64,000 nt of DNA from Candidatus Freyarchaeum deiterrae (GTDB lineage Archaea; Asgardarchaeota; Jordiarchaeia; Jordiarchaeales; Jordiarchaeaceae): NCBI GenBank assembly GCA_037305845.1, contig CP147778.1:1440001-1504000 (forward strand). Direction: 5' to 3'. Position 1 is the stretch's first letter. Each line of letters begins with the position of its first letter. A program made the translations under genes and the position numbers. Positions 11,545 through 62,067 of this stretch are shown one piece after another. Below the pieces are notes generated by a model. The model ran no database searches, was not told the DNA's origin, and saw only the letters and a program-made list of their open reading frames with translations.

Positions 11545-13040
11545 TTACCCCTTTACAACACCAAGAGGACGCAAACGTGCAACCATAGACGCTATCCCCG
11601 CATCATGCGAAGCTTGCACCACTTCATCAACATTCTTGTAAGCCTCTGGGGCTTCCTCACTCACAACTTGAGCACTAGCCGCCCTAACAAAAATCCCCTT
11701 CGACAAGAGTTTGCTTTTCACACCCTCACCTGAAAAGCTCTTAATCGCCTGAGTCCTACTCATCACACGGCCGGCACCATGTGCGGTGGAGCCGAAACTA
11801 AGCTCCATTGCTTCTTTTCGTCCTCTAAGTATGTAGCTGGCGGTTCCCATGGTTCCAGGTATTATCACCGGCTGACCTATGCTTCTATATTTTTGTGGAA
11901 CTTCTGGATGGTCTGGCGGAAAGGCGCGTGTGGCTCCTTTTCTGTGTACATAAACAGAGTGAGTCTCACCGTTAACCTTGTGCTTTTCTATCTTTGCTAT
12001 GTTATGCGCCACATCGTAAATCAGATGCATATCAAGATCTTCAGCTGACCTTCCAAATACGTTTTGAAAGGATTCTCGTATCCAGTGTGTTATACTCTGT
12101 CTATTTGCCCAGGCGAAATTCGCGGAGGCAGCCATAGCCGCTAAGTAGTCTTGTCCCTCAGGACTGTTTCCAGGAGCGGCTGCTAGTTCTCTATCGGGTA
12201 AATTAATTCCGTATTTTCTTGAGGCGTTTTCCATGATTCGTAGATAGTCAGAGCAGACTTGATGTCCTAGACCCCGTGAACCCGTGTGAACCATTACGGT
12301 AACCTGATTCTCACTTAATCCTAAGACCTTGGCTGCGTCTTGATCAAAAATTTTCTCTACGTATTGAATCTCGAGAAAATGATTACCTGCCCCTAATGTT
12401 CCCACTTGGGCAACCCCTCTCTCCTTTGCTTTGCTTGACACTTTTGAAGTGTTCGCTCCCTCCAATTTTCCATTCGCTTCGCAGTTTAAAGCGTCCTCTT
12501 CCCATCCGAAACCGTTTTTAATAGACCAGCTAACGCCCTCGGAAAGAATTCCGTCCAAGTCTCTAGCTGAGAGTTTAATTTTTCTCTTAGATCCCAAACC
12601 ACTAGGCACATTATCAAACATTTCTTTTGTTAACTCTTTTATCTTGGATTCAGCGTCCTTCCTCTCAAGATTGGTTTTAATCACTCTAACACCGCAATTG
12701 ATATCATACCCAACCCCGCCGGGACTTACAACTCCGTTGTCCTCAATATCAGTAGCGGCTACTCCGCCTATTGGAAAACCGTAGCCCTGATGAGCTTCCC
12801 TCAGTAGAGGACATCCTCTCCTGAATCGGGCAGGGTTACGGAGAATTTTTTTATGCCTGGCAGGCTGCATACGTTAACGGCTTGGATTAGAGTTTGATCC
12901 TTATAAATATCTTTAAGCAATACCTCGTTTGCAATAATTCTGGCTGGAACCCTCATGTAGGGTCGATAATCTTTAGGAATCTCCCAAATGTTTTTATTAA
13001 TCTGCTTAAGAGGAATATTTCTTGTACTCAAAACAATCAC
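11545..13040 (-). CDS. rtcB: RNA-splicing ligase RtcB; two exons (13040/13031-12825 and 12795-11545), about 485 aa spliced
   Basis: Exon 1 ends ..VTLPD, exon 2 starts [11 protein letters not shown]; DINCG, GNHF, HTGSRG, HN, HRKGA, HGAGR motifs intact. Confidence 0.96.
12796..12824 (-). other. 29-nt BHB-type intron in rtcB mRNA
   Basis: CCCG AU|U CAG-G-AGAGG AUGU CCUCU-A-CUG AGGG AA|G; excision restores LPD-AHQGYG; in-frame UGA inside. Confidence 0.88.
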
Positions 13041-42397: not shown

Positions 42398-42542
42398 GCA
42401 GGGATAGCCAAGTGGTAAACGTTAAACGTATCCGCAACGGCGCAGATAGTCTACAATGGTAGATAGCGTAAGCCTGGAGAACTTTCTTGGAAGCCTGTGA
42501 TCCGTAAGGATCGCGTGGGTTCAAATCCCACTCCCTGCGCCA
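42398..42542 (+). tRNA. tRNA-Ser(GGA) with three introns: 42418-42437 (21/22), 42446-42471 (29/30), 42480-42491 (37/38); CCA encoded
   Basis: Acceptor GCAGGGA/TCCCTGC-G-CCA, long variable arm, GTGGG-TTCAAAT-CCCAC; anticodon stem CAGGC/GCCTG forms after excision; mature 87 nt. Confidence 0.9.
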
Positions 42543-60989: not shown

Positions 60990-61640
60990 CTATTTTTCTT
61001 TGCAGAATTTTTGGATATATTCAACAGCGTATTCCAATGCTTGATCCAAATCTTTTTCGCTTATTCCAGGAACCCCGCAGGACATTAAAATAATTTTTTG
61101 GGTTTTTAGAGTTATTTTCGTATCGTCAGAATCGCGATAGGGATAAACAGCTACAAGCCGGTTATCATCAGACACAACTATTTCGCCCCCATTGAGACTT
61201 TTTGGTTTCTCCATCCCTATGCCTAGGAACATCTCGCCAACAATTGAAAATCGCATAGTTAAACTGCCAACAACAGTATCCACGTCAAATGCTGCAATTG
61301 GTACTCCGCTCGTTATAGATGCTAAATTGTAGGCGTCAACAGCAGTATTTATCTTTGGAATAGGGTTTTCTTGGAGAATCCGTCTAATTAGAGCCTCAGA
61401 AGCGGGGCGGATTTTTGTGGGGTCGATGCCTATTTTCCAGAAGAAATCCCGGTATTTCCGCATCTTCTCATCATTTTTTAGACTCTCAAGATCGTATTTC
61501 CCTTTTATCTTCGAAAAAACCGATTTTTTGAATTCTTCAAGTTCACTTTTATCCCTCTCTATACGCACCCCATCAACCACCACAATTTTTGCGTTTAAAT
61601 CGGGAAACCTTTCTCTAATCTCTTCGTCGATAACAAGCAT
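60990..61640 (-). CDS. Standalone B3/B4 (PheRS-beta-like tRNA editing) domain protein
   Basis: YRDF.W..GIDPTK.RP.SEAL.RR, IN..VD.YN. Confidence 0.9.
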   Translation of the reverse strand: MLVIDEEIRERFPDLNAKIVVVDGVRIERDKSELEEFKKSVFSKIKGKYDLESLKNDEKMRKYRDFFWKIGIDPTKIRPASEALIRRILQENPIPKINTAVDAYNLASITSGVPIAAFDVDTVVGSLTMRFSIVGEMFLGIGMEKPKSLNGGEIVVSDDNRLVAVYPYRDSDDTKITLKTQKIILMSCGVPGISEKDLDQALEYAVEYIQKFCKEK

Positions 61641-61689: not shown

Positions 61690-61840
61690 TGGTGGGCAGG
61701 AGAGGAACTTCCGCATATCACAGGAAGTGATACGCTTTTGAACCCCTTTAAGGAACACTTAAACTGTGTTTGACCTCCTGAGCCCAAGTCAGGAATCATA
61801 CCAAGTTTTCCGCTACACATTAGCTCTAGACTACCTGCCC
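61690..61840 (-). tRNA. tRNA-Pro(TGG) with three non-canonical introns: 61806-61825 (15/16), 61748-61771 (48/49), 61707-61736 (59/60); CCA encoded
   Basis: Acceptor GGGCAGG/CCTGCCC-A-CCA; CCTGA-CTTGGGC-TCAGG arm; T arm AGGGG-TTCAAAT-CCTCT after excision; mature 77 nt. Confidence 0.92.
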
Positions 61841-62067
61841 ACTGGACTTTTTACTTTTCTTTGAAAGGGTAGTTAGAATTTTTTGTGGTATGTTTCTATT
61901 CTACGTGAAGTGTTTAAAAAGATTACTTTTATTAAAGCTTACTGAGTGTTTAAGAGTTATATTAAAATGAGAACCTATGGTTAAATTATCGTCAATAGTC
62001 CTTGACATATTAACGGTATAATAAGAATATTACAAATTAAACATTGATTAACTAAGGGGAAGAGTAA

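Follow-up and report, generated by a model that had tools for sequence, protein, structure and literature searches.

A probable single-copy tRNA-Pro(UGG) gene with three BHB introns, unlisted in the published genome of the Asgard archaeon Candidatus Freyarchaeum deiterrae

In the complete genome of Candidatus Freyarchaeum deiterrae, a soil Asgard archaeon with 3.58 Mbp of DNA, and in two related genomes, 92-95% of tRNA genes are interrupted by introns, many of which lie at non-canonical sites, and over half of the genes have several (Valentin-Alvarado et al. 2024, PMC11291895). Supplementary Data 4 of that study lists up to four introns per tRNA gene (PMC11291895). The standard archaeal BHB motif at which such introns are removed consists of a 4-bp helix between two 3-nt bulges and is cut after the second base of the bulge (PMC4090602). 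The preliminary description of the locus considered here looked for its parallels in the Thermoproteales, from which triple-intron tRNAs are known. This holds for Pyrobaculum islandicum, but the present host belongs to the Asgard archaea (Freyarchaeia), for which multi-intron tRNAs had already been published. The phenomenon itself is therefore not new to the lineage; what is new is an unlisted but necessary gene of a published genome.

The published catalogue for this genome comprises 38 tRNA rows, among them Pro(CGG) and Pro(GGG), the latter with three introns, but none for Pro(UGG) and none at 1501690-1501840 (PMC11291895). Entries for Phe, His, Cys and Glu are likewise missing from the 38-gene list (PMC11291895). 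The tRNAs recovered by ARAGORN and Rfam agree with rows of Supplementary Data 4, for example those at 1114536-1114631, 1510272-1510349 and 1547486-1547561.

The chromosome is a single contig of 3,576,204 bp with 40.7% G+C, from which one stretch of 64,000 nt, here called the window, was analysed. In this window the pre-tRNA-Pro(UGG) gene occupies positions 61690..61840 of the minus strand, reading from 61840 down to 61690 (genome coordinates 1501690-1501840), and its 151 nt comprise four exons, three introns and an encoded CCA. Exon 1 (61826..61840, minus strand) provides tRNA positions 1-15, that is, the acceptor 5' strand, U8, the 5' strand of the D stem, A14 and G15. Exon 2 (61772..61805, minus strand) provides positions 16-48, namely the remainder of the D arm, an intact anticodon arm with the anticodon UGG at 61786..61784 (minus strand), and the variable loop. 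Positions 49-59, the 5' strand of the T stem and the T-loop as far as A59, lie in exon 3 (61737..61747, minus strand), and positions 60-76, comprising U60, the 3' strands of the T stem and acceptor stem, A73 and CCA, lie in exon 4 (61690..61706, minus strand). All four assignments follow the ARAGORN cloverleaf; exon 1 is further marked by a compensatory change at pair 4-69, exon 3 by a two-sided change of T-stem pair 50-64 in the genus member G028, and exon 4 by its pairing.

Excision of pre-tRNA nucleotides 16-35, 70-93 and 105-134 (20, 24 and 30 nt, or 74 of the 151) leaves 77 nt that ARAGORN folds as tRNA-Pro(tgg). The fold has canonical cloverleaf dimensions, with a 7-bp acceptor stem, a 5-bp anticodon stem and a 5-bp T stem in a normal T-arm, together with a 5-nt variable loop and a 3' CCA. 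The anticodon arm is uninterrupted, and the canonical intron site at 37/38 is empty; the 7-nt loop that holds UGG also has U33 and G37. The remaining expected bases are also in place: U8, A14, G18-G19, G53, U54-U55-C56, A58, C61 and A73. In the unspliced 64-kb window ARAGORN reports no tRNA anywhere, with or without its intron mode, and Rfam reports none at gathering score in the window and none in 61690-61840 at E values up to 10. The preliminary description had given exactly these gene coordinates, an anticodon arm free of introns, and the expectation that standard scanners might miss the gene; the two programs, along with a published tRNAscan-SE catalogue that holds no Pro(UGG), bear out this last point too.

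All three introns are compatible with BHB geometry, to different degrees of relaxation. Intron 1 (61806..61825, minus strand; 20 nt at 15/16 in the D-loop) forms a relaxed BHB with three of four pairs in the central helix GUCU/GGAA, bulges AG|A and AA|C, a 4-bp hairpin that adjoins the 5' bulge and almost no outer helix. Intron 2 (61748..61771, minus strand; 24 nt at 48/49, at the junction of variable loop and T stem) has all four pairs of GAGG/CCUU, one of them G-U, bulges UC|A and AA|A and a 5-bp hairpin, and is without an outer helix. Intron 3 (61707..61736, minus strand; 30 nt at 59/60 in the T-loop) adopts an hBHBh' form in which the T stem serves as a 5-bp outer helix, with three of four pairs in UUCA/GGAA, bulges AA|A and GU|U and a 9-bp hairpin. 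These sites, lengths and relaxed helices are those first proposed from the sequence, and splicing, BHB fit and orthologues now uphold them; BLAST of each intron against the genome confirmed the intron coordinates. A conformer that presents all three BHB motifs lies 9.3 kcal/mol above the predicted minimum free energy, and forcing any single motif alone costs about 3 kcal/mol. Such modelled costs would fit introns that are presented singly, one after another. Cleavage would depend on a tolerant enzyme, given the mismatch in the central helices of introns 1 and 3 and the scant or missing outer helix of introns 1 and 2.

Orthologues also provide a record of these junctions. The 22 bases of the anticodon arm and variable loop occur once in the genome, and of the five other genus members, four have an identical copy; exon 2 as a whole is invariant in the genus alignment. 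Three of these orthologues (G028, G056 and G082) have the full set of three introns, at identical sites. The fourth, G038, has introns 1 and 2 and lacks intron 3, and its sequence at that point is exactly the proposed spliced junction. In the fifth genome, G064 (97% complete), neither the anticodon-arm search nor BLAST gave a Pro(UGG) match. Intronless Pro(UGG) orthologues in two other Asgard families (G062 and G111) match the spliced D-loop and the spliced junction of variable loop and T stem, and thereby confirm the first two junctions, 15/16 and 48/49. Automatic intron placement from a gapped alignment succeeded within the genus except for a wrong register in G028, and it fused two inserts of the more distant G070.

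These comparisons leave a small residual probability that the gene is real and at least one junction is misplaced, for instance with intron 2 at 49/50 or with a one-base shift of intron 1 that would put A at position 16, in which case the mature tRNA would be the same or slightly different. The intron 2 junction is ambiguous by one base in the sequence itself, which has an A on both sides, and the D-loop, read by eye, would still count 9 nt with intron 1 shifted by one base. Placing intron 2 at 49/50, however, abolishes the BHB, since the helix falls to two wobble pairs of four and the hairpin no longer abuts the bulge. The shift of intron 1 leaves, again by eye, two of four helix pairs and a 1-bp hairpin, and the intronless orthologue in G111 has C at position 16. 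The junction of intron 3 is pinned by the G038 allele that lacks it.

With the junctions as first placed, all 178 of the 178 cloverleaf and intron-hairpin pair cells in the five genus sequences are standard pairs, compared with 40-51% in slid controls. Three pairs show two-sided changes: acceptor pair 4-69 (C-G to A-U), T-stem pair 50-64 (G-C to A-U) and one pair of the intron 1 hairpin. Two of these compensatory pairs join strands from different exons, which argues for selection on the spliced molecule. Across species the intron loops vary freely while helices and bulges are retained, and BHB geometry is maintained at all three inserts in every orthologue.

The genome contains exactly three matches to a proline-specific D-arm signature, one each for CGG, GGG and UGG. 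This signature replaced genome-wide regular-expression screens for a UGG anticodon arm, which gave hundreds of chance matches with or without acceptor pairing. The anticodon arm of Pro(UGG) has no second genomic occurrence at up to 2 mismatches, and whole-gene BLAST against the genome returned no second copy; these searches work by sequence signatures, which a very divergent copy, or one interrupted within the signatures, could escape. Another intact Pro(TGG) gene, which the preliminary description had singled out, alongside an absent mature tRNA, as the counter-evidence to look for, is thus present neither among the signature matches, nor in the BLAST results, nor in the published list. Among the proline codons of 1,145 long ORFs, CCA accounts for 29%. 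By standard wobble rules, CCA is readable by a UGG anticodon only. The locus is very probably the sole gene in Ca. F. deiterrae for a proline tRNA that would read CCA codons.

Rejection by standard finders and absence from the published catalogue are also what a decaying tRNA pseudogene might show, its inserts being unremoved junk and CCA being decoded by another, undetected tRNA. We give this reading slightly less weight even than a misplaced junction: the exons are invariant or change in compensation while the intron loops drift, the inserts of every orthologue keep their BHB geometry, and CCA codons are common in a genome in which no other Pro(UGG) gene was found. That an intergenic sequence yields a cloverleaf by chance after three arbitrary deletions, as many sequences can when three deletions are free and as brute-force BHB removal did in many spurious ARAGORN matches at another locus, is already refuted for practical purposes by the shared exon set, the precise presence or absence of introns, the agreement with intronless Pro(UGG) genes and the complete pairing set against 40-51% in the slid controls. 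Every sequence-testable feature of a BHB-spliced archaeal tRNA gene is found here, and we regard the locus as a new gene of an already known sort. Taken together, the sequence comparisons make it highly probable that this is a functional, single-copy tRNA-Pro(UGG) gene whose three BHB introns are spliced as described.

The published catalogue was compiled with tRNAscan-SE 2.0 and R2DT (PMC11291895), and tRNAscan-SE seeks non-canonical introns only in candidates nominated by its first pass (PMC8450103); this design may explain the omission of Pro(UGG). An earlier study had warned that incomplete Asgard tRNA sets point to undetected disrupted genes (PMC5829648). Of the 38 published tRNAs, 33 were found again by a screen for a paired acceptor stem and T-arm, which also picked up the Pro(UGG) gene and five unlisted tRNA-like loci, the latter all outside the window, at 1631535-1631720 (+), 1647848-1648027 (+), 1690130-1690305 (-), 1729308-1729446 (+) and 1790046-1790195 (-). 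ARAGORN identifies one of the five as Leu(CAG). Three more look, by eye, like a Ser(GCU)-type class II tRNA, an initiator-like tRNA with A1:U72 and a Glu(UUC) tRNA with three introns, and the fifth is left unassigned. Brute-force BHB removal followed by ARAGORN gave many contradictory solutions at other candidate loci and was not used for calls. The window holds a second tRNA gene at 42398-42542 (+), which the published table gives as Ser(GGA) with two introns; ARAGORN and Rfam both missed it. As a separate observation, 37 of the published tRNA genes fall within about 1.11-2.34 Mb of the 3.58-Mb chromosome, the sole outlier being the selenocysteine tRNA at 0.81 Mb; the Pro(UGG) gene and the five new candidates lie in the same region, a marked regional clustering.

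Downstream of the tRNA gene lies an ORF with a B3/4 domain (60990-61640, minus strand), and upstream, in divergent orientation, an M1 aminopeptidase gene; an Lsm gene and the gene for ribosomal protein S3 are nearby. Runs of T follow the CCA. An A/T-rich box read from the sequence at 61873..61885 (minus strand), 33-45 nt upstream of position 1, is a possible archaeal TATA-like promoter element. A similar A-rich box precedes the orthologue in G028, and a TTTATA-type box that in G056; no clear TATA box stands at the usual distance from the Pro(UGG) gene.

The genome encodes two EndA paralogues, at genome coordinates 1920679-1921311 (+) and 1733138-1733731 (-), each with both EndA domains. The longer of the two, with 211 aa, most resembles the catalytic alpha subunit of Aeropyrum pernix (3P1Z chain B, E 8e-43), retains the active-site Tyr, His and Lys, and aligns without gaps over the Crenarchaea-specific loop, where its K66 lies opposite A. 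pernix K44. This lysine of the A. pernix specificity loop has been tied to broad specificity (PMC5829648). The 198-aa paralogue retains Tyr and Lys and has Thr in place of the catalytic His, which suggests that it is probably a structural beta subunit. Asgard archaea are known to possess an (alpha-beta)2 EndA with an L1 loop (PMC5829648). The two-EndA set agrees with this published type and is predicted to be able to cut relaxed motifs. The need for a broad-specificity endonuclease, which the preliminary description had stated for triple-intron tRNAs, thus finds its counterpart in a predicted alpha subunit with a Crenarchaea-type loop and a predicted beta subunit that lacks the catalytic His.

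The sole RtcB found in the genome, an RtcB-type RNA ligase, is encoded at 11548..12798 of the minus strand (PF01139, E 1.3e-171, 442-aa open frame), and would be the likely ligase for the four exons, acting in trans. Its gene happens to share the window with the tRNA-Pro(UGG) gene, about 49 kb away. We propose that a precursor of about 151 nt would be transcribed in which three BHB introns split the mature sequence into four exons. The heteromeric EndA would then cut each intron after the second base of its two 3-nt bulges, removing the introns in some order, and RtcB would join the exons to a 77-nt tRNA that already ends in CCA.

The three introns appear to differ in age. An intron at 15/16 with similar ends is present in every one of the sister family's five Pro(UGG) genes and in the four other genes of the genus, and the Pro(CGG) and Pro(GGG) genes of the same genome also have an intron at 15/16 when their sequences are read by eye; for Pro(CGG) the published study places it one base further, at 16/17 (PMC11291895). 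This distribution argues that intron 1 is old: it would predate the split from the sister family and probably also the divergence of the proline isoacceptor genes. Intron 2 (48/49) is present in all 5 genus genomes that hold the gene and absent from the sister-family orthologues. Introns 2 and 3 are seen only within the genus; the Pro(UGG) genes of the sister family have instead an intron near positions 25-28 and, at 58/59 in the T-loop, an unrelated one. BLAST of introns 1 and 2 against the genome found no other copies of either.

G070, from the sister family's second genus, has a Pro(UGG) orthologue of 186 nt (L015:1501-1686). Removal of five insert blocks, near 15/16, 25-28, 34/35, 47-48 and 58/59, leaves a 77-nt tRNA-Pro(tgg) that is nearly identical to those of the sister genomes; in the MAFFT alignment the two extra blocks appear as a single 43-nt insert, which resembles a partial duplicate of the 3' strand of the anticodon arm. 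This gene may have four or five introns, the highest count per gene in the cited literature being four.

A tree of RtcB, rooted on the sister family, resolves two clades, (G000, G028) and (G038, G056, G082, G064), with fork support of 85/85 and 90/89 (the G038 clade having 90/89), below the star threshold of the tool. Because intron 3 occurs in both clades, its absence from G038 is best read, on this one gene tree, as a single precise loss of an ancestral intron. A recent gain of intron 3 was also considered and was rejected, as G038 falls inside a clade (support 90/89) with the intron-bearing G056 and G082.

When the 1,326 intron pairs of the genome are ranked by similarity, third place goes to intron 3 with the 59/60 intron of tRNA-Arg(UCG), and no other pair in the top six crosses from one amino acid to another; the family of intron 3 has just these two members in the genome. 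Common ancestry of intron 3 and the Arg(UCG) T-loop intron is well supported by these sequence similarities, and the transfer between the two genes predates the genus. In G056, G064 and G082, Arg(UCG) has T-arm exons identical to the Pro(UGG) ones, with an intron of the intron 3 family between them, so that conversion of the whole T-arm would be as possible as transposition of the intron alone; in Ca. F. deiterrae itself, the T stems of Arg(UCG) and Pro(UGG) differ. Tentatively, and as a doubtful proposal rather than our expectation, intron 3 might belong to a family that is still mobile, having moved, with or without its T-arm flanks, between Arg(UCG) and Pro(UGG) and later having been excised precisely in one species. 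If this were true, the genus would offer a natural series on the gain and loss of archaeal tRNA introns in close relatives of eukaryotes.

Introns 1 and 3 do share the AGC...GCGGAA ends noted in the preliminary description, but the translocation that these were taken to hint at finds little backing, since the two introns rank 75th of the 1,326 pairs and their ends are undistinctive; a relationship of introns 1 and 3 as copies is unsupported. Many published introns of this genome start with A and finish in GAA followed by one or two bases (by eye, uncounted), and the shared ends look like a house style of the introns of the lineage rather than a sign of translocation. Elsewhere in the genome, the two introns of tRNA-Asp(GUC) (1426998-1427132) rank fifth of the 1,326 pairs and represent a possible intron duplication within one gene.

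The Pro(UGG) gene fills a gap, supplying the CCA-reading tRNA missing from a published complete Asgard genome, where the 38 listed tRNAs do not suffice to decode every codon. The case shows that genes with at least three non-canonical introns escape the tRNA finders now in use, which affects tRNA counts and the quality statements derived from them, work on codon usage, and claims of missing Asgard tRNAs. The comparison within the genus adds a clean, precise intron loss and one intron common to tRNAs for different amino acids.

Of the systems already described, the multi-intron tRNAs of Atabeyarchaeia and Freyarchaeia are the closest, being the same phenomenon in the same genome, where Pro(GGG) has three introns of its own (PMC11291895). 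Atabeyarchaeia-1 has two Pro(UGG) genes with three introns each, like the Freyarchaeum Pro(UGG) gene; for the latter, that study contains no BHB analysis, orthologue comparison or history of intron gain and loss (PMC11291895). The tRNA-Pro(UGG) of Pyrobaculum islandicum is the same isoacceptor and likewise has three protein-spliced introns, with BHB or relaxed HBh' motifs, in a host group, the Thermoproteales, whose (alpha-beta)2 EndA with a specificity loop is of the kind predicted here (PMC4090602, PMC4033280). The two differ in host phylum, Crenarchaeota versus Asgard, and in intron positions, which are 25/26, 37/38 (canonical) and 56/57 in P. islandicum and 15/16, 48/49 and 59/60 in Freyarchaeum. 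When these positions are compared with archaeal intron sites at large, as had been suggested, 59/60 proves to be a listed non-canonical site, whereas 15/16 and 48/49 are not among the sites given in the review, which are examples rather than full catalogues (PMC4090602). Whereas only one cross-family pair involves the Freyarchaeum Pro(UGG) gene, the pattern is that of intron sharing in the Thermoproteales, where tRNAs of different amino-acid families have similar introns at one and the same position (PMC4090602, PMC4033280), as here with intron 3 and its counterpart in Arg(UCG).
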